In this document: positions 5,165 through 22,856 of the stretch, piece after piece
How positions within the stretch are numbered: the first letter of the stretch is position 1
Layout of the letters: each line of letters opens with the position of its first letter
Assembly (NCBI GenBank): GCA_027053075.1
Contig: JALUEE010000104.1
Location: 1 to 25,481 of the forward strand
Reading direction: 5' to 3'
DNA length: 25,481 nt
From: a candidate division WOR-3 bacterium
GTDB lineage: Bacteria; Hydrothermota; Hydrothermia; B15-G9; WFZT01
Made by a program: the position numbers and the translations under genes
Notes under the pieces: generated by a model
The model's input: only the letters and a program-made list of their open reading frames with translations
Databases searched by the model: none
What the model was told of the DNA's origin: nothing

Positions 5165-5563
5165 TTACTCTTTCTTTGCCTGGCTATAAGATTTGTAAAA
5201 GTTGACTACCGGCAGTAAGATTCTGATAGGTGAATTATAAGTTAGCATAAATACAGCACCTCTCAAAGTCATGTACACAGAGGGAATTATGTTCCCATAA
5301 ATATACTTTTCTTTTGTAGCCTTACTCATTTTTGTGTTGAATTCAAAAATTGCATAACCCCTGGCCTCAAAGAAAATGTTTTCTTCTTGTTCCACAGTCA
5401 GAGTGTAACCAATTTTGTATTGCTCTACATTTTTGCGCTTTCTTACTTTGAATGAGAAATCGACATCTCCCGGCAGGATAGATACGTTTTTCTTTTTGAA
5501 TGAATAACTAACTTCCTCAATTTCAAATTTTAGGATATTTATATCTGCACCATACAGTTTCAT
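5165..5563 (-). CDS. SecB-like chaperone of a toxin-antitoxin-chaperone (TAC) module
   Basis: 132 aa with beta-rich N-half. C-terminal NIIPSVYMTLRGAVFMLTYNSPIRILLPVVNF matches the SecB pattern N...Y..LR.....T......L.LP..NF. Third gene after the toxin and antitoxin. Confidence 0.8.
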   Translation of the reverse strand: MKLYGADINILKFEIEEVSYSFKKKNVSILPGDVDFSFKVRKRKNVEQYKIGYTLTVEQEENIFFEARGYAIFEFNTKMSKATKEKYIYGNIIPSVYMTLRGAVFMLTYNSPIRILLPVVNFYKSYSQAKKE

Positions 5564-5575
5564 GAAAAACTCCTT

Positions 5576-5974
5576 TTACGCAGCTCGTTGGAAATCATTT
5601 TCGTCGAATTTATATTTAGGAAAGTCGATTACCTCTTGCCATGAACGATTGGATGTGGATTCTTCAGTTTTTCTAAAAGACATTTGTTCAATAGGTTGCA
5701 TTTTTATTTCTACATTTAGACCAAGAGCAAGTGCGAGTTTTAATAAGGTTTTTAATGAAATATTTTCGTTGCCTTTCAGAATTTTTGAGATATAGGCATC
5801 AGACACACCTAATCTTTTCGCTAACTCTCTCTGAGAGATTCCTTTTTGCTTCATTCTCTCATAAATTGTCTCGGTTAAATCGTAAAGTAGTTCTTCGAGC
5901 TTAAACCAGAAACTATTTTCATTTTCCCTGATATAGTTTCTAATTCTCTCTTCTAATGTCTTCTTTTGAGCCAT
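5576..5974 (-). CDS. HigA-like Xre/Cro HTH antitoxin with C-terminal ChAD-like extension
   Basis: HTH MKQKGISQRELAKRLGVSDAYISKILKGNENISLKTLLKLALALG, followed by a tail of about 40 aa ending WQEVIDFPKYKFDENDFQRAA. Starts 1 nt after the toxin stop. Confidence 0.85.
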   Translation of the reverse strand: MAQKKTLEERIRNYIRENENSFWFKLEELLYDLTETIYERMKQKGISQRELAKRLGVSDAYISKILKGNENISLKTLLKLALALGLNVEIKMQPIEQMSFRKTEESTSNRSWQEVIDFPKYKFDENDFQRAA

Positions 5975-5975
5975 A

Positions 5976-6362
5976 CTAATCCTCCTTTTTTAAAAATTTT
6001 TCAAGTATTTCCTGTGCATTTTTATACACTATTTTCTTAACATTTCCTTTTCTTACACCATTGCTCAAATAGGCTATATTTTTTAGAAAATCAGGGGAAA
6101 GGAATATTCTTATCTGGGGTTTGGTGTGAATTCTGAACTCCCACAAATTGTGAGATGAGAGTTTTTTGAATTTTTTCGGGTTTTGGGGAAATCCATTATC
6201 TGCAACTTTTTTAATAAATGCTATCACTCTCTGTCTCTCGTGTTTACCAAGGGAGTTTAAAAACTCCTCAATATAGATTCGCTCTCTTCCGCCTGGTGAT
6301 ATCTTTTTAATAGCCATGATAGTCAGTTTAGCACCTTTATAAAAGATTTCTGCTTCATACAC
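5976..6362 (-). CDS. RelE/HigB (Gp49-like) type II toxin
   Basis: Basic 128-aa protein with EEFLNSL...FKKLSSHNLWEFRI...QIRIF...NGVRK, a RelE/ParE-fold pattern. Toxin-first order as in higBA. GTG start with GGAG 10 nt upstream. Confidence 0.8.
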   Translation of the reverse strand: MYEAEIFYKGAKLTIMAIKKISPGGRERIYIEEFLNSLGKHERQRVIAFIKKVADNGFPQNPKKFKKLSSHNLWEFRIHTKPQIRIFLSPDFLKNIAYLSNGVRKGNVKKIVYKNAQEILEKFLKKED

Positions 6363-14059: not shown

Positions 14060-14114
14060 ATGTAGCCCCTCACCTTTATCCTCTCCCCGCAAGTATTTAT
14101 GCGCGGAGAGGAAG
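14060..14114 (+). repeat. REP-like palindromic unit (empty-site equivalent of the interrupted copy at 19718-19998)
   Basis: ATGTAGCCCCTCACCTTTATCCTCTCCCCGCAAGTATTTATGCGCGGAGAGGAAG. Confidence 0.9.
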
Positions 14115-14234: not shown

Positions 14235-14435
14235 CCCTCCCCCGCGCTTCGCGCGGGGGAGGGCAAGGGAGGGGGAATTCCGCTTGAAATCTTTAAAAAA
14301 TTAAGATGTGGCCCTCACCCCATCCCTCTCCCGCGAAGCGGGAGAGGAGGATTCAAAGATTTTTTGATTGGAAATTTATCAGATGTGGTCCCCACCTGAC
14401 CTCTCCACGCAAAGAATTTATGCTGGGAGAAGAAG
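14235..14435 (+). repeat. three-unit BIME-like REP mosaic
   Basis: 13-bp stem 14235-14263 (inverted unit), linker ATTCCGCTTGAAATCTTTAAAAAATTAAGATGT, unit 14306-14347 (10-bp stem, GAA loop), second linker, degenerate unit 14383-14435. Collinear with 20196-20383. Confidence 0.85.
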
Positions 14436-15870: not shown

Positions 15871-16145
15871 TTGTATTTAATTGTGTAATATTCCAGCATA
15901 TTCATATTGCCTGAAAAACGATTCCAATGCGCGAGAAGTGAATGCGAGAAGCAAAAGACTTCAAGCCTTCTCAATCCCCATTCTCCCCTAACCCCTCCTT
16001 CCCCGAGGAAGGAGGGGAAATTTCGGGCTTTCTGATATACGACCCCGTTTTGCTTGTTTAAGCAGAAATAGGACCCCCTCCCTTCCCTTTGGGAAGGGAG
16101 GGTTGGGGTGGAATGGGTTGTCATCAACATTTCAAACTCATTCAT
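15867..16145 (-). other. 92-codon ORF built over a REP doublet, bridging rgy and recX (coding status uncertain)
   Basis: ATGA overlap with the rgy stop (16142-16145) and with the recX start (15867-15870). Peptide segments HSTPTLPSQREGRG and FPSFLGEGGVRGEW are translations of the repeats. Confidence 0.3.
15976..16117. repeat. inverted REP doublet (REPIN-like)
   Basis: Stems CCCCTCCTTCC-ccga-GGAAGGAGGGG (15992-16017) and CCCTCCCTTCCC-ttt-GGGAAGGGAGGG (16076-16102), each with a CCATTCnnCCCnAACCC tail in opposite orientation; 58-bp spacer. Confidence 0.85.
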
Positions 16146-19100
16146 CGTTTAGTGGAAAAAGTTCCTCTCGAGACTATATACACAACCTTCTTGAGGTCTC
16201 TTAAGATGCTCTGATAGTCTGCTGTGCCCTCCTCTACCCTGTCCATCTGCTCCTCAAGAAATCTCGTAAACTCCTCACTCGTGTATTCTGGATATCTCTC
16301 CGTTAAAAACCTATAAACCTTCCGGCCAAGGGCAGTTGGAAACAAAAACTTGCCTCGCTCAACCACGTATTTTCTGTCAAGTAGCGTCTGGACAATTTTT
16401 GCATAAGTTGAAGGACGTCCGATCCCCCGCTTTCTCATTTCTTCAATGAGGGTCCCCTGGGTGTAAGGCACCGTTGCCGGTACAAACTCTAACTTTTTGT
16501 CCTTTAAAATGAATTTCTCCGGAAGTTTTACCAATTTGATTGGCTGGAGAAGGTTAAAGCCATCTTCAATGATTTCAGTGGCAACCTCCTCCGTATGCAA
16601 AATTTTGTCATCAAGTTTAAACGTGAGTTTTGCGAATTTAACCTTTGCCTCTTTCATCTGGGAAGCCATAAATCTTCGCCATATAAGACTGTAGAGACGA
16701 ACGGCATTCCATGGGTCATCGAGCTCCACCTTCCTTTCTCTTACCATAAATCTCAGCTCGTCTGGTGGAATTGGTCTCGTGGGTCTTATGCATTCGTGGG
16801 CACCCCCCTCGCCCCATTTCCTAAGTTTCAGGTACTCAGGGCCAAATTCTTCTTTTATAAATTCTGCAGCTACCCTGAATCCGGCATCGGAAACCCTTGT
16901 TGAGTCTGTTCGATGATAGGTAATGAGTCCCCTTTCAAAGAGTTCCTGCGCAAGAGACATAGTCTTCTCAGCGGAAAAGCCTAAAAAGTCAGACGCACTT
17001 CGGAGAAGCTCACCTGTGTTGAATGGAGGAGCTGGATAAACGCTTCGCACCTCGTCGGCTTCCTCTGTAACCACAATTTCATGGGCTCTTTCAAAAATCA
17101 TTCGTGCCCTGCTCTCGTCCTCAATCCGGAAAGACGTTTTAAAACCATCAAATTCAAGGGTGAGCAGCCCGACCTTCCGCTTTCTCTCATTCTCCCGTTT
17201 TATCACCCATCCGAGAACTGGGGTTTGAACCCTTCCTGCAGATAGAGACCTCAGCCCGAAAGTTTTTTGCAATTTCTGGGATAAAGAAAATCCCACCCAC
17301 CTGTCAGCTATTCTCCGCAAAATCTGCGCCTTAACAAGACTTTCGTTAACATCCCTCGGTGACTCGATAGCTTCCCTGAAGGCCCTCGGTGTTACCTCGT
17401 GGAATTCGCTTCGATGGATATTTTGATTGAACGGAAGAATATTCAGCAAAATATCCCAGGCAATCTTCTCACCCTCAGAATCAGGATCTGTGGCCACATA
17501 CACCTCATTCACTTCCATGGAAAGCCGTCTAAATGCCTCAATAATTTGCAGCTTGTCGAGATCAGGCTTTTTGCCCGAATGGCAGAGATTCTCTGTGGTC
17601 TGCTCTCCCGTCTCAGTACAGCGCTTTATCGTGGCATAGACAGGAACAAAAAATCCTTTGTTTTCTAAAACCCCATAAATCCCGCCTTTTTCCGCAAGAT
17701 CAAGGATATGACCGAGCGAGGCAGTTATGAGCATCACACGGTCCCCTAAATTAACCTCATAGGCAAGGGAATCGCCGATCCACCTCTTCTGTGGTCTGCC
17801 AAAAAATCCAGCGATTGTTCGGGCTTTGTTGGGTGATTCAACGATGACAAGCGTTGATCTTACAAGGTCTCGTCTCTCAGCCTTCACTTCGCCGCTTAAA
17901 ATTTTTCTTACCCTCTCCCTGTCGTTATCAATCTCCTTCAAAACCTTCTCAAGATCAATTTTTTCTAATTTCTCAAATTCAAACTCGTAGCTCAAAAATG
18001 TCCGGAGTCTCCTTTCGAGGCTCCTGAAGGCTTTTTTCATATAAACAAGTGAGACGGCAAGGCCTTTTGTGAGTCCACCGGCAAACAATCGCGATGTTCT
18101 GCCCGTTGCTTGGATGTATGAAGTCGCATCACCTATGGTGAAAACAATTTTGCCGTCTTTTTCAATTAAAGAGATTTCGTCCGACGAGCGGAATTTTTCT
18201 AAAACATCTGGAGAGCTAATTTTCTCCCGTATGAATTCAGCGATTTCGTTGAGTTTCTCGGCAACTTTTGGGTATTTCTCAAGCTGCTCTTCGCGGAGAT
18301 TGAAATATTTGTTAATAAATTCGGCATATTCCTCAATTTTCTCTCTCTCATCAGGCAAGGCCACGCGCAGGGGATAGACAAATCTCAAGAGATTTCGGGG
18401 CAGGATGGAATCAACGTTGGCAGGTATAAGCAATTTTGGAACTCCAAGGAAAATCGCGTATCTTATCCTCTCTGGCATATCTATTCCACGAACGAGGGGA
18501 TTTTGATGGTGGGAAAGGCCCACGAGAACTTCAGCCTCTCCGTTTCGGAATTTTTCAAAGGCATCTTTGTCATCGTACGCCAGGGCTTTCTTCCCAAGAA
18601 CCTCTTTCACCCTGTCAACCATCTCCCTGCCGAGGTCCATGGACACGTAAACGAGCCCTCCGCCGCCGAGAGTTTCAACTAAATCCGGGAGTTTTTGAAG
18701 GCCCTCTTCGAATGACTTCACTTCCATGTAGGTATCAACAACGTTTCTGATGGTAGCAGTGGATTTCTGAACGTCAAATCCAAGGAGATTTTGAAATAGA
18801 ATTACCCTTCGTGTACGGGGCTGAACAGTGGCAGAAGAGATAACGAGGACACCTTCGGGCTTCTTGAATTTCTTTTTGCCTCCAGCCATTGCGCGTTTGA
18901 TGTCTCGGTCTGTAAATCCCAGCAGTTTTACGATGTAATCAATATTTTTAGATGCCTTCAGTAGAGAGTCCACGTCATCGACAAAGATGAATTTGAACTT
19001 AAACGGAGAGACGAGATCAAAGTTTTTGTAAAGAAACATGTGCGTAGAAATCAGAATGTCGAAGTCACCGGACTTTATGCGTTCCTTGTCATCCTTTTTC

Positions 19101-19552
19101 CCTGTGTAAGCGACAATTCTTTTGTCTGTTATGCTTGATATACGCTCAAAAGCCTGTTTGACAAGGACTTTCGTGGGAACAATGATGTAAGTCTTTCCCT
19201 CTATAAACGCTGCCATTGCGAGGCCAAAAGTGGTTTTACCAACACCTGTTGGAGCGAGAATGGCAAAGGAGTTGCCAAGGATGACGCGTCTTGCCCAGGT
19301 TTCCTGCAATGCCCACGGGGCAAATCCAAATTTCTCTCTGAAAAACTCGCTGAATTTCTCTGATACTGATTTAACCCTGCAGAGGTCAGACAATCTTTTG
19401 AGTTTACCTGTTTTTTCGAGGGTTTCACAGAGAATGGTATTATCGACCGGCTCAGGCAGACAATTTGAGCACGGAAGGCCACTTTTCAGCCTTGTGTAGC
19501 TGATCGAACCGTAACAATTTGGGCATAAATTTTTAAAAATCGCGATATTCAT
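16142..19552 (-). CDS. rgy: reverse gyrase
   Basis: N-terminal Zn finger CPNC...CSNC; SF2 helicase-like APTGVGKTT, DDVD, QATGRTSR; TOPRIM VESPNKA and TDPDSEGE; SAGRVQTP; catalytic ITYHRTDS; GIGRPSTYA; 1136 aa. Confidence 0.97.
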   Translation of the reverse strand: MNIAIFKNLCPNCYGSISYTRLKSGLPCSNCLPEPVDNTILCETLEKTGKLKRLSDLCRVKSVSEKFSEFFREKFGFAPWALQETWARRVILGNSFAILAPTGVGKTTFGLAMAAFIEGKTYIIVPTKVLVKQAFERISSITDKRIVAYTGKKDDKERIKSGDFDILISTHMFLYKNFDLVSPFKFKFIFVDDVDSLLKASKNIDYIVKLLGFTDRDIKRAMAGGKKKFKKPEGVLVISSATVQPRTRRVILFQNLLGFDVQKSTATIRNVVDTYMEVKSFEEGLQKLPDLVETLGGGGLVYVSMDLGREMVDRVKEVLGKKALAYDDKDAFEKFRNGEAEVLVGLSHHQNPLVRGIDMPERIRYAIFLGVPKLLIPANVDSILPRNLLRFVYPLRVALPDEREKIEEYAEFINKYFNLREEQLEKYPKVAEKLNEIAEFIREKISSPDVLEKFRSSDEISLIEKDGKIVFTIGDATSYIQATGRTSRLFAGGLTKGLAVSLVYMKKAFRSLERRLRTFLSYEFEFEKLEKIDLEKVLKEIDNDRERVRKILSGEVKAERRDLVRSTLVIVESPNKARTIAGFFGRPQKRWIGDSLAYEVNLGDRVMLITASLGHILDLAEKGGIYGVLENKGFFVPVYATIKRCTETGEQTTENLCHSGKKPDLDKLQIIEAFRRLSMEVNEVYVATDPDSEGEKIAWDILLNILPFNQNIHRSEFHEVTPRAFREAIESPRDVNESLVKAQILRRIADRWVGFSLSQKLQKTFGLRSLSAGRVQTPVLGWVIKRENERKRKVGLLTLEFDGFKTSFRIEDESRARMIFERAHEIVVTEEADEVRSVYPAPPFNTGELLRSASDFLGFSAEKTMSLAQELFERGLITYHRTDSTRVSDAGFRVAAEFIKEEFGPEYLKLRKWGEGGAHECIRPTRPIPPDELRFMVRERKVELDDPWNAVRLYSLIWRRFMASQMKEAKVKFAKLTFKLDDKILHTEEVATEIIEDGFNLLQPIKLVKLPEKFILKDKKLEFVPATVPYTQGTLIEEMRKRGIGRPSTYAKIVQTLLDRKYVVERGKFLFPTALGRKVYRFLTERYPEYTSEEFTRFLEEQMDRVEEGTADYQSILRDLKKVVYIVSRGTFSTKR

Positions 19553-19558
19553 ATTGCA

Positions 19559-19587
19559 ATTTTACCTCCCCACCCCAAAATGTTCAA
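19559..19587 (-). promoter_or_regulatory. putative sigma70 promoter of rgy
   Basis: TTGAAC (19587-19582), 17 bp, TAAAAT (19564-19559), ending 6 nt before ATG 19552. Confidence 0.65.
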
Positions 19588-19717
19588 TGAGGATGTGAGG
19601 TTTTGATTGTTAGCTCAAAAATTATTGCTCCTCACAAACCTTGCACGTGTCGGTGGGACAACCACGAGCTTTGACGAGGGGGGAAGTCAAAGCGTCTGAA
19701 ATTTTTAAAAATACAAG

Positions 19718-19998
19718 ATGTAGCCCCTCACCTTTATCCCTGACGTCACCCACGAATTTCTGAATAATAACACCTGATCCCTTGCCACGTCTTCAAAAAG
19801 GTGTACTACGCTCAATATTTGAACATTCTTTTTATGCAGTACAAACGAATATGTCCTCCTGGCAAAATTACTGATTTTATGCGCAAAATCAAATTTCCCG
19901 CGCAGATTGCACTGTATAAATATACATGAAAAGCAAAAACATGGGTGATGTCAGACCTTTATCCTCTCCCCGCAAGAAATTTATGCGGGGAGAGGAAG
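19718..19998 (+). repeat. REP-like unit interrupted by a MITE
   Basis: ATGTAGCCCCTCACCTTTATCC (19718-19739) resumes as ACCTTTATCCTCTCCCCGCAAGAAATTTATGCGGGGAGAGGAAG (19955-19998). Confidence 0.9.
19740..19954. mobile_element. 215-bp non-autonomous miniature inverted-repeat element (MITE)
   Basis: Ends CTGACGTCACCCACG / CATGGGTGATGTCAG form a 13/15 inverted match. Flanked by perfect 10-bp direct repeat ACCTTTATCC (19730-19739, 19955-19964). No transposase ORF. Confidence 0.88.
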
Positions 19999-20195
19999 TT
20001 TTTGGAAGCAAGTCTCATTAATTTGTACTCTTTGATTCAGCCGATAGGCGCTTAAAAATAGATTTCTCTTCAAAGTATTAAGCTTCCATTACCTATCCAC
20101 TATAGCCATGGCTTCTACAATTGGAACAAGCTCGAAAGTATTCACCTTCCACTCGCAGGCTTTGCCTGTTGGGCAAAAGATATCCCAGGTAATTT

Positions 20196-20383
20196 CCCTT
20201 CCCCACGCTCCGCGTGGGAGAGGGAATTCAGGGTGGGGGCATACCGCTTAAAATCTAAAAATCAAGATGTAAGCCCTCACCCCGACCCTCTCCCGCAGAG
20301 CGGGAGAGGGAGTTTTACGGATTTTGACTGAAAATCTGCCAGATGTAGCCCCTCACCTCAATCCTCTTCCCGCATGTATTCAT
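20196..20383 (+). repeat. three-unit BIME-like REP mosaic (last unit truncated)
   Basis: Inverted unit 20196-20239, linker ATACCGCTTAAAATCTAAAAATCAAGATGT, unit 20267-20310 (11-bp stem), linker GATTTTGACTGAAAATCTGCCAGATGT, half unit 20343-20383. Confidence 0.85.
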
Positions 20384-20604
20384 AAGTTTTTTAAACAAAC
20401 CTCTTTTTTCGAACCTTTGATGTGGGACAAATACATTTGAAAATTTATAGGAGGCCGTCAAAAGCAGCCCCCTAATCCACATCGGGGATTTAATCTGTAA
20501 GTATTTACAACAATAAAAATTCCAGAAATGGAGATTTGGCAGAATAGGTGGAGAGAAATCCCGTAAAAACTTTTGATCTGAAATATTTCGAACCAATATC
20601 ATCA

Positions 20605-20633
20605 TTGTTACTGATTTTCGGATAGTTTAAAAT
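20605..20633 (+). promoter_or_regulatory. putative sigma70 promoter of the propeller-receiver-nucleotidyltransferase operon
   Basis: TTGTTA (20605-20610), 17 bp, TAAAAT (20628-20633), ending 6 nt before ATG 20640. Confidence 0.6.
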
Positions 20634-20639
20634 AAAGGT

Positions 20640-22856
20640 ATGATGGCTTTTATTCTTGTTATCCTGAGTTTTTCCATTAACTGGACCACCTTCTACAACT
20701 CCGAGATGCTGAACGGATGGGCAAGACATGGCGACACCCTTTACCTTGCCACAAATGGCGGAATTTTGCAGGCGATACTGAGAGATTCCCTGGTCATTAC
20801 AAAGAGGTTTACGAATATTGATGGTCTTAGTGAGCCTGTCATTAATTCCATAACTATTGACGAATACGGAAATGTCTGGGCTATTGGAGACCATCACGTG
20901 TTTTTCAAAAACGGGGATACTTTCGTTCCCTACAATGGGCTAAATTTTGACAACGACAGTCTCACATCCATTGCAACAGCCGGAGATTGCATTTTCATTT
21001 CCTCGATTACGGGGATAAGGATTATTTCCATGATGGGAACACCATCGGATTTTGGAGACGACCGGATTACCACATACAATAGCTATAACCTGCCAATCGA
21101 AAGTGATTCCATTCTAAAACTCAGAATAATGAGAGATACACTACTTTTTGGTACACCACGGGAGTTTTGCTACTCTCCCCTACCCGGCTTTCCAGACAGT
21201 CTCGTTCGCATCCCTTCAGACAGTCTCCCCGGTGCCTATGGAAGCCAAAAAACTATCAGGGATTTTTACAAAGGACCTCGTGTCCTTGCCATACTTACCA
21301 ACAACGCAGTCTTTTTAAGGGATTTTGAAAACAACTGGCACGTGATTCAATCCGTCAACAACGGTCGTACCTACTGGTTTTGTGGCTACCATATCATTTC
21401 GGGAATAAACAACAACGTGTATGTGGGACTTGGATGCCTTCGCGACAATGCTAATTTACCTGTTAGAATCCTTCCACTTGTTAAAATAGATTCAACAGGA
21501 AGTGCAGAGGTCATTTCACCGGATAGCCTTGTATGCGACTATCCCCCTCACGTAACTCAGGTAATCCCTATTTCTCCTGACACCCTAATCATTGGCACCG
21601 TTTGCAATCATTCATACAACCTCAATTTTAGTGAGAGAAAATGTGGGGGGATGACTTATACATATCACGACGGAACATGGACGGGCCAGAAACTTGGTCT
21701 GCTTGAGATCAACTACATTTCAGGTATTAAGAAAACCTCTGATGGAAAAATATGGTTATTTTCCTCGCTCATCTATCTACCGACCTATTACTCACGGCTT
21801 TTTTACTTTGATGGGAAAAGGTTTTATCCTTCCGGAAATTTTAATCATGTCTTTCATGACTCAACGGGAGAGCTGGATTTGCTCACTGACATTGAGGTAG
21901 ACAACACCGGGAGACTATGGGTTGCAACCAACCATAACGGGATCTTCCGCATAGATGGGGACAGTTTTGACATTCACCTCTACCCTTCCGAATTTGTCAA
22001 AACCATTGGATTTACAGGTGACAATGAGCTGGTATTCACCACGAATTCTGGTACGTTCCTTCATTCAGAGGCACAGGATACAAGGATAAGCTCGCTTACG
22101 AATGTCTATTCCATAACTCATGACCAGCAGGGGAATCTCTGGCTTGCAGATATTTCGAACGGCTTTGAGGTCTATTCTCCGTCCTATCAGCTTGTTCTGA
22201 GCTCAGCAAACTTCTTTTCTATCACGACTCATAGTTTCAGGTGTGCTGCTCACATGGGCTCCTATCATTTCCTCGGCTCAGACAATGGAATTGTTGTAAT
22301 TAACGGAGAAAAACTGGAGACCACGATTCTTCCAGGGGTTGTGATTCGAAGTCTTGCCCTCGACAGTCATGGTTATCTCTGGGCACTCACAGAGGAGGGT
22401 GTTTACGTAATAGATACAAGAGATTTTTCGATAAAATACTACTTTTCTGCGTTCAATAGCGGACTTGTGGGCAATACAAGAGATGTGGGACCAAATTTCT
22501 TTTACTACAAACTTATCCGGGATGACATTCTTGTTGATGAGAACAGTCACACTGTCTGGATAGGTTCCACCCATGGTGTTTCGGTCATCAAGACCGATCT
22601 TTACTGGAACTACGCAAATAAGGCCGCGAGTCCCATCATTTTCCCCTCGCCAGTGAAGCCCGATGACAGGTTTGTAACAATATCTGGATTAAACGACAGA
22701 GAGCGGGTATCTTTGTATAAAATGGATGGCACGAAAGTTAAAGTGGAGCTCGAGAGGGGAAAGGGATTTGTGAGATTCGTGACCAAGAATCTCTCTGCAG
22801 GTACTTATATCGTCCTCGTAGGGAATAAAAAGCTTCTTTTTTCAGTAATTAAATAG
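20640..22856 (+). CDS. secreted beta-propeller protein with T9SS type-A C-terminal domain (PorZ-like architecture)
   Basis: Signal peptide; repeated regulator-propeller motifs (FTNIDGLS..INSITIDEYGNVW, DIEVDNTGRLWVAT, SLALDSHGYLW, VWIGSTHGVS); CTD IFPSPV...LYKMDG...AGTYIV...FSVIK. Confidence 0.7.
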   Translation: MMAFILVILSFSINWTTFYNSEMLNGWARHGDTLYLATNGGILQAILRDSLVITKRFTNIDGLSEPVINSITIDEYGNVWAIGDHHVFFKNGDTFVPYNGLNFDNDSLTSIATAGDCIFISSITGIRIISMMGTPSDFGDDRITTYNSYNLPIESDSILKLRIMRDTLLFGTPREFCYSPLPGFPDSLVRIPSDSLPGAYGSQKTIRDFYKGPRVLAILTNNAVFLRDFENNWHVIQSVNNGRTYWFCGYHIISGINNNVYVGLGCLRDNANLPVRILPLVKIDSTGSAEVISPDSLVCDYPPHVTQVIPISPDTLIIGTVCNHSYNLNFSERKCGGMTYTYHDGTWTGQKLGLLEINYISGIKKTSDGKIWLFSSLIYLPTYYSRLFYFDGKRFYPSGNFNHVFHDSTGELDLLTDIEVDNTGRLWVATNHNGIFRIDGDSFDIHLYPSEFVKTIGFTGDNELVFTTNSGTFLHSEAQDTRISSLTNVYSITHDQQGNLWLADISNGFEVYSPSYQLVLSSANFFSITTHSFRCAAHMGSYHFLGSDNGIVVINGEKLETTILPGVVIRSLALDSHGYLWALTEEGVYVIDTRDFSIKYYFSAFNSGLVGNTRDVGPNFFYYKLIRDDILVDENSHTVWIGSTHGVSVIKTDLYWNYANKAASPIIFPSPVKPDDRFVTISGLNDRERVSLYKMDGTKVKVELERGKGFVRFVTKNLSAGTYIVLVGNKKLLFSVIK

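Follow-up and report, generated by a model that had tools for sequence, protein, structure and literature searches.

The DNA analysed here, hereafter called the window, is a stretch of 25,481 nucleotides from a candidate division WOR-3 bacterium whose genome (G000) has been assembled into 114 contigs totalling 2.44 Mb and is 95% complete. It carries a reverse gyrase gene, rgy (16142..19552, minus strand; identified by a match to TIGR01054) and, divergent from it, a gene encoding a beta-propeller (Reg_prop) protein with weak PorZ/T9SS-tail matches (20640..22856, plus strand). As located in the first-pass annotation, a 215-bp MITE (19740..19954, plus strand) lies between these two genes, 188 bp upstream of the rgy start. 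It is flanked by two perfect copies of the 10-bp sequence ACCTTTATCC at 19730..19739 and 19955..19964 (no strand assigned), and its terminal inverted repeats (19740..19759, plus strand; 19935..19954, minus strand) match at 13/15 and 16/20 positions, the same figures as first reported. No ORF is contained in the element: stops occur in all reading frames but one, and the remaining open frame of 71 codons runs off both ends.

Excision in silico of the MITE together with one copy of the duplication restores, as had been proposed, a repeat unit like that found at 14060..14114 (plus strand), with 2 substitutions and 1 indel by eye. The latter had also been presented as the empty site, but it is a paralogous uninterrupted copy and not an empty allele. 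An empty orthologous site occurs in the genome of a sister species (G004, contig C303), where a single ACCTTTATCC is present and no element. One contig of the best-matching sequencing run reads, with zero mismatches, through the left junction into 67 bp of the window MITE, while the right junction was unbridged among the 32 read-run pieces listed. Mapping of reads for empty alleles gave no clear one at the exact locus, the skip joints being short-sided and likely derived from paralogous repeats.

An Rfam scan of 19400-20700 pointed to no known RNA: its six matches lay outside the MITE and scored far below the gathering thresholds. The MITE was also considered as a structured RNA, but its fold (z = -3.2) was not taken as evidence for this because the terminal inverted repeats make up the main helix. 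A promoter scan near rgy detected 5 sites versus 2.3 +/- 1.7 in shuffles. The 9/12 promoter-like site at the left end of the MITE does not stand out from chance, and the one facing rgy is not within the element, so that neither a regulatory role nor an effect on rgy is shown for the MITE. Elsewhere in the window (5165-6362, minus strand), three short consecutive genes, read by eye as a SecB-like chaperone, a helix-turn-helix protein and a RelE/HigB-like protein, form what we take to resemble a toxin-antitoxin-chaperone module.

The search for sibling copies revealed 23 full-length MITEs of 214-216 bp in G000 which, together with the lack of an internal ORF, upholds the initial call of a MITE. 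Target duplications are exact and of 10 bp in 17 of these copies and of 11-12 bp in 3, the others having 10 bp with a mismatch (1 copy), 10 bp after five extra bases (1 copy) or none (1 copy); 9-bp duplications were found in 0/23. With 23 full copies, 17 of them with an exact 10-bp duplication, the window element is not a chance structure. It is the most divergent copy in G000, with 85.6-89.8% identity to the other 22, and shares 94% identity with one copy of G004. A recent burst is suggested by ten other copies whose identity to one reference copy is at least 99%. Among the 41 genomes searched, the family is confined to G000 and to the sister species G004, which has 9 full copies; the 10-bp duplication is exact in 7 of them.

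Several copies have unusual surroundings. The five extra bases noted above (G000:C47:83865-84079), GTCAG, follow the right end and precede the duplication; they repeat the last five bases of the element. One copy (G000:C21:10743-10958) has a 12-bp duplication and sits inside a terminator-like G/C hairpin. The copy devoid of duplication (G000:C40:294-509) has mirror-loop halves on its flanks that face opposite ways, as if the hairpin between or next to the insertion(s) had been deleted, an arrangement that would possibly be direct evidence of element-driven repeat loss. Two copies are found within one purine-skewed element (G000:C11:18483-19396) that resembles by eye an IS3-type integrase gene, and a third MITE insertion occurs in G004 (contig C61) in a similar sequence. 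Finally, other non-autonomous elements of sister species, of 238 bp (G001:C100), 432 bp (G001:C114) and 225 bp (G003:C295), have related CTGACATTACCC ends and, in two of the three cases, 10-bp duplications.

An autonomous partner with matching ends had been sought, and a 1.19-kb IS was found in G000. IS ends having the termini of the MITE but a different interior occur as 4 left and 7 right ends, mostly at contig breaks, and three left/right pairs have a common 10-bp duplication. One of these pairs, on contigs C85 and C40, contains the two halves of a transposase gene, the whole IS measuring 1188 bp. This gene is interrupted at a TA by an IS630-type element and belongs to the only IS copy assembled far enough to be read. 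The IS630-type element (G000:C40:1227-2290 and G000:C85:1-146) has two ORFs and a TA site; beyond it, C40 continues into an unrelated SurA-like gene, indicating either a misjoin at an IS630 copy or a rearranged locus. The termini of the window MITE are identical to those of the IS at 18-19/20 positions (left end) and 20/20 positions (right end), and a subterminal block just inside the right inverted repeat is common to both. Their interiors gave no alignment better than shuffles (p 0.14-0.94), and descent of the MITE from the IS by deletion is therefore not shown. In the MITE, window positions 19778-19783 read TTGCCA and align with a TTGACA box that precedes the transposase gene in the left end of the IS (L001 near 860); they are possibly a decayed transposase promoter.

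A DDE transposase had been inferred, and an IS4-like family considered compatible with the 10-bp duplication; further analyses of the partner point to an IS4-family DDE transposase. Both transposase halves match the NF033591 IS4 model (2e-24 and 3.8e-14), while a Pfam search of the two halves at E 0.001 returned nothing and a PDB sequence search only noise. A full-length transposase of 347 aa, encoded by a single ORF with no frameshift, is on record and matches the N-terminal half with 100% identity over 91% of this query; it scores 138.8 on NF033591, under the cut-off of 152, and this model is the best family for 14/14 transposase homologues. Across these 14 homologues, residues D89, D153, E250, Y243 and K257 are invariant and R246 is nearly so, which includes the complete YREK signature Y-(2)-R-(3)-E-(6)-K (Y243, R246, E250 and K257). 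The DDE spacers are of 63 and 96 residues, the second being slightly under the published D(60-110)D(100-150)E. The top five PDB matches of the predicted structure (pLDDT 73.5) are all Tn5 transposase (E 8e-8 to 8e-7). Because they share ends, duplication length and target register, the MITE has likely been moved in trans by the transposase of the same-ended IS. From what is known of the IS4 family, this would proceed by cut-and-paste with a 10-bp staggered target cut.

The sequence into which the MITE is inserted had been taken for a REP/BIME unit. REP elements are recognised by an associated Y1 HUH transposase (TnpA-REP/RAYT) and by a GTAG tetranucleotide at the foot of the hairpin. A Y1/RAYT transposase (PF01797) was not found in the 95%-complete G000, the control search being positive in 6/14 genomes. 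In the uninterrupted unit, the GTAG at 19720-19723 is ca. 18 bp away from the hairpin rather than at its foot, and it is variable or absent among subtypes. On both counts REP membership was rejected, and the layout and letters of the repeat point elsewhere. In the uninterrupted order, a mirror segment CCCCTCACC is followed by a 5-nt loop, by CCTCTCCCC and by a hairpin closing on GGGGAGAGG, a three-stem mirror-plus-hairpin arrangement. At the locus, the mirror or third-strand segment CCCCTCACC (19724..19732, plus strand) is parted by the insertion from the hairpin (19963..19995, plus strand), whose pyrimidine and purine stems are CCTCTCCCC and GGGGAGAGG, respectively, and the left copy of the duplication is centred on the mirror loop. 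The insertion, which is intergenic and probably near-neutral, separates the third-strand segment from its hairpin.

This arrangement is that of class II triplex motifs, which consist of pyrimidine, purine and reverse-Hoogsteen mirror stems (GG, AA, TA pairs) with a second loop of up to 6 nt (PMC4666352); the stem order and the second loop of the host repeat both conform to it. The same class II layout on the purine strand, in intergenic position, characterises the BoxC/PIT/TMECO repeats of E. coli (Holder et al. 2015, PMC4666352), whose letters are nearly identical in the host repeat over the purine stem, the short loop and the following GGTGAGGG. In most copies here the first loop is longer than the 6-nt limit of that description, and there are about 20 times more copies than the 23 of E. 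coli (PMC4666352). The family indeed amounts to about 450 copies in G000: a strict motif finder detected 472 motifs versus 1, 1 and 0 in three local shuffles, and 442 G-rich class II motifs with an 8-nt stem were counted, including the reconstructed host site. The first loop is within the 6-nt ITxF limit in 58 of these 442, and the host copy of the window, with a longer and partly paired loop, is outside it. By its sequence, the host repeat is therefore of BoxC type in layout and letters rather than a strict ITxF hit; triplex formation in vitro has been shown only for E. coli oligonucleotides.

Triplex-type repeats are numerous in the vicinity. At least three further units occur in the rgy-propeller gap, and intergenic clusters of several subtypes are found in the window at 266-490, 14235-14435, 15980-16110 and 20196-20383. 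The single DUF559 gene of G000 (G000:C26:16563-16877, L161; E 2e-41) has triplex-type repeats on both sides, as well as a roughly 40-bp A/T-rich block that recurs at both flanks, and is a candidate for how these repeats spread.

Whether sibling copies occupy the same repeat family had been raised at the outset, and insertions do concentrate there. Empty sites were reconstructed in G000 for 22 MITEs, for a further MITE divided between two contigs and for three IS pairs, 26 in all; the copy lacking a duplication was left out. Of these, 18 fall within 2.5 bp of the centre of the mirror loop, 1 at a hairpin tip, 1 elsewhere in the repeat and 6 outside. Among 6000 random non-coding positions, 85 fell in a mirror loop, 75 in a hairpin loop and 423 elsewhere in the repeat, so that 69% of observed sites compare with 1.4% expected at the mirror loop (binomial p 7e-28, sites treated as independent). 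Six of the 7 sites reconstructed in G004 are also at the mirror loop. When only in-repeat sites of both genomes are considered, 24/26 are at the mirror loop versus 85/583 in the background (Fisher p 3e-17, sites again treated as independent). Mirror-loop insertions of G000 have the same orientation as the repeat in 9 cases and the opposite one in 9, and 28 distinct ten-base duplications occur among 30 sites.

The preference extends to relatives of the IS. In other species of the genus, related ends are found at the equivalent loop of a shorter triplex-type motif (for instance G003:C295, with a 10-bp duplication), and 12/25 ends carry a motif tag, 6 of them stricter tags. For distant relatives, which were recovered with an alignment query after the single N-terminal half had given none, 67 of the 83 loci returned were analysed, 16 duplicates or partial matches being left out, and 44 with recognisable ends were kept. 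They provided 78 distinct flanks from MAGs labelled Balneolaceae, Chitinophagaceae, Thermoanaerobaculaceae, Hyphomicrobiales and Rickettsiales, plus unlabelled contigs. A tag occurs in 34/78 flanks versus 1.2% of control positions, the looser tag requiring only G-runs, and stricter hairpin or mirror tags in 14/78 versus 0.7%; many of these loci are related or come from similar samples, and most have no matching duplication, probably because the assemblies join ends of different copies, which makes the comparison supportive rather than a formal test. Hairpin tips are also targeted in relatives. Read outwards from the element, targets begin with CC or GG, as seen in 52/78 distant-relative ends, and proceed through an A/T-richer centre into a G- or C-run.

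We consider it moderately probable that these observations have a common explanation, in which a MITE sharing the ends of an IS is moved in trans and lands mostly in the mirror loop through a local readout of sequence or shape rather than through recognition of a folded triplex. An IS4-family DDE transposase would act in trans on ends common to the MITE and the 1.19-kb IS, by cut-and-paste and with a target cut staggered by 10 bp. Each half of the transposase dimer would accept a G-run or a C-run, on whichever strand. These runs would surround an A/T-richer centre of 4-6 bp and reach some 5 bp past the duplication. With its two C-runs on either side of a short loop, the mirror loop would then be the commonest best-fitting site, while short-looped hairpin tips (C-run, loop, G-run) would fit too and be used in relatives with shorter repeats.

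This local readout was formulated as a two-component 26-bp model that treats each 13-bp half-site as either a G-run or a C-run; its training set comprised 103 half-sites, all taken from other genomes. At beta=1, the model places 60% of hits over the whole genome, and 79% of hits in non-coding DNA, at mirror loops, as compared to the 69% observed. Because this matches the observed share, a local readout is sufficient, triplex folding is not needed and this reading was ranked first; however, since the training half-sites are themselves largely derived from triplex-type repeats, the match speaks for sufficiency and not for causation and leaves room for folded-triplex recognition. The hits outside the full repeats include a hairpin-less half motif (model score 14.9) and, in G004, a G-run site resembling the coding DNA of another IS, while three off-repeat sites of G000 score poorly (0.2-2.4). 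A plain strong/weak-base model of the target was rejected: 942 of the 9393 non-coding sites scoring at least 3 with it were mirror loops versus 17/22 observed. Hairpin-less mirror motifs, under a loose definition, number 243 in non-coding DNA versus 517 full motifs and received about 1 hit versus 18; many of the 243 are weaker matches, and the difference hints that the hairpin may help targeting.

The latter difference is also one of three observations favouring recognition by the transposase of the intrastrand triplex (or H-DNA) in its folded or extruded form, with cleavage around the short loop joining the third strand to the purine stem. In addition, insertions of both orientations centre on the mirror loop of a target that is not palindromic, a pattern not obviously expected of a two-fold symmetric dimer reading bases, and the different, shorter triplex motif of sister species is hit at the equivalent loop (for instance G003:C295). 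We nevertheless regard triplex recognition as unlikely, for the local sequence model gives the observed share, a hairpin-less half motif and non-repeat G-rich sites are hit as well, and relatives target hairpin tips. Moreover, in vivo footprinting detected no stable triplex at an E. coli site, a 10-bp staggered cut is known to require duplex target DNA, and a high-temperature host endowed with reverse gyrase would be expected to disfavour strand opening. Equal reserve applies to its generalised form, in which IS10-like transposases forming an uncharacterised clade across phyla (CTGACAT/CTTAC ends, 10-bp duplication), together with their MITEs, would read the BoxC/PIT triplex fold and cut around its loop.

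It appears quite improbable that insertion is steered to the loop by a repeat-bound host protein, or by the DUF559 nuclease, through tethering of the transpososome or bending of the DNA. The abundance of the repeat family (472 motifs versus 0-1 in shuffles) and the triplex-type repeats flanking the only DUF559 gene would agree with such a tether; the recurrence of the same half-site pattern across unrelated phyla better fits a property of the transposase. A pure safe harbour, with random insertion and survival only in dispensable intergenic repeats, had been suggested for this element and is very improbable as the sole explanation. Nearly all copies are indeed intergenic or within other mobile elements, and selection probably removes coding insertions, of which the 26-bp model at beta=1 expects about 32%; yet the 1.4% expectation was already drawn from non-coding DNA, and the use of one register in 24/26 in-repeat sites largely refutes this view. 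Duplication of whole repeat-plus-MITE units in place of independent insertions, to which three G000 copies with the same duplication in the same repeat subtype would conform, is scarcely credible in view of the 28 distinct duplications among 30 sites, of near-identical MITEs in different repeat subtypes and both orientations, and of the empty orthologous repeat in G004.

No function is known for the widespread BoxC/PIT/TMECO triplex repeats, and a defined IS4-family clade with its MITEs uses them as main landing site in a fixed register. If the preference reflects local sequence only, as favoured here, the system is a tidy and fairly ordinary addition to repeat-targeting IS. A polarity-blind G/C-run target rule would be unusual for a DDE dimer. 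If the triplex reading were true, it would represent a DDE transposase reading a DNA triplex and an in vivo reporter that these long-unexplained repeats fold. In either case, a small transposase and a 215-bp donor offer a cheap test of the in vivo relevance of the triplex fold. No transposons or transposase remnants are described at E. coli TMECO sites by Holder et al. (PMC4666352), who report a raised genetic variability around these repeats; landing of a MITE in a fixed register would be one concrete route to instability at BoxC-type repeats. IS186 in BoxC was considered as a precedent but was left unconfirmed, one paper having both in a table only and a further search returning none. A search of the open-access literature, with subscription papers and ISfinder outside its scope so that older reports may exist, returned no report of an IS targeting BoxC or triplex motifs.

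When compared to IS-derived bacterial MITEs, as summarised in the introduction of PMC4666352, the element does not differ in kind: it has the same size of ca. 200 bp, terminal inverted repeats, a target duplication, no coding capacity and the need for a transposase in trans. Its partner is, on sequence grounds, an IS4-family, IS10-like element. It resembles the IS10 subgroup (IS10R, ISAba1 and ISTth2; PMC2266710) by its single-ORF DDE transposase, full YREK signature, ends beginning with CT and length of ca. 1.2 kb. It was not called a member of this subgroup because its duplication is of 10 bp and not 9 bp (PMC2266710) and because named members are only ca. 25% identical: among the 45 of 524 plasmid records listed, the named matches are ISTth2 (25% identity), placed in the IS10 subgroup in supplement S5 of De Palmenaer et al. 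(2008, PMC2266710), and ISEc29 (24%). Its 1188 bp compare with the 1200-1350 bp given for the subgroup in PMC2266710, relatives with clear ends measuring ca. 1140-1230 bp, its D-E spacing of 96 compares with 100-150 in the same source, and its target is, in contrast, often a non-palindromic mirror repeat.

IS elements that target REPs include ISRm22 (IS4 family), IS1397 and ISKpn1 (IS3), and IS621, ISPpu9 and ISPpu10 (IS110) (Tobes and Pareja 2006, PMC1525189). The present system shares with them a fixed position in an abundant intergenic repeat, an IS4-family example being included in that survey (PMC1525189). ISRm22 inserts at the palindrome axis of the REP with a 6-bp duplication and has all its copies in REPs (PMC1525189), whereas the insertions described here target a triplex-type motif, mainly at its mirror loop and thus outside the hairpin, with a 10-bp duplication and with 6/26 sites off-repeat. 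Hence, IS-derived MITEs and repeat-targeting IS, including those of the IS4 family, were already known, and the present system departs from them in its target class, in its mirror-loop register and in a polarity-blind half-site rule across the clade.
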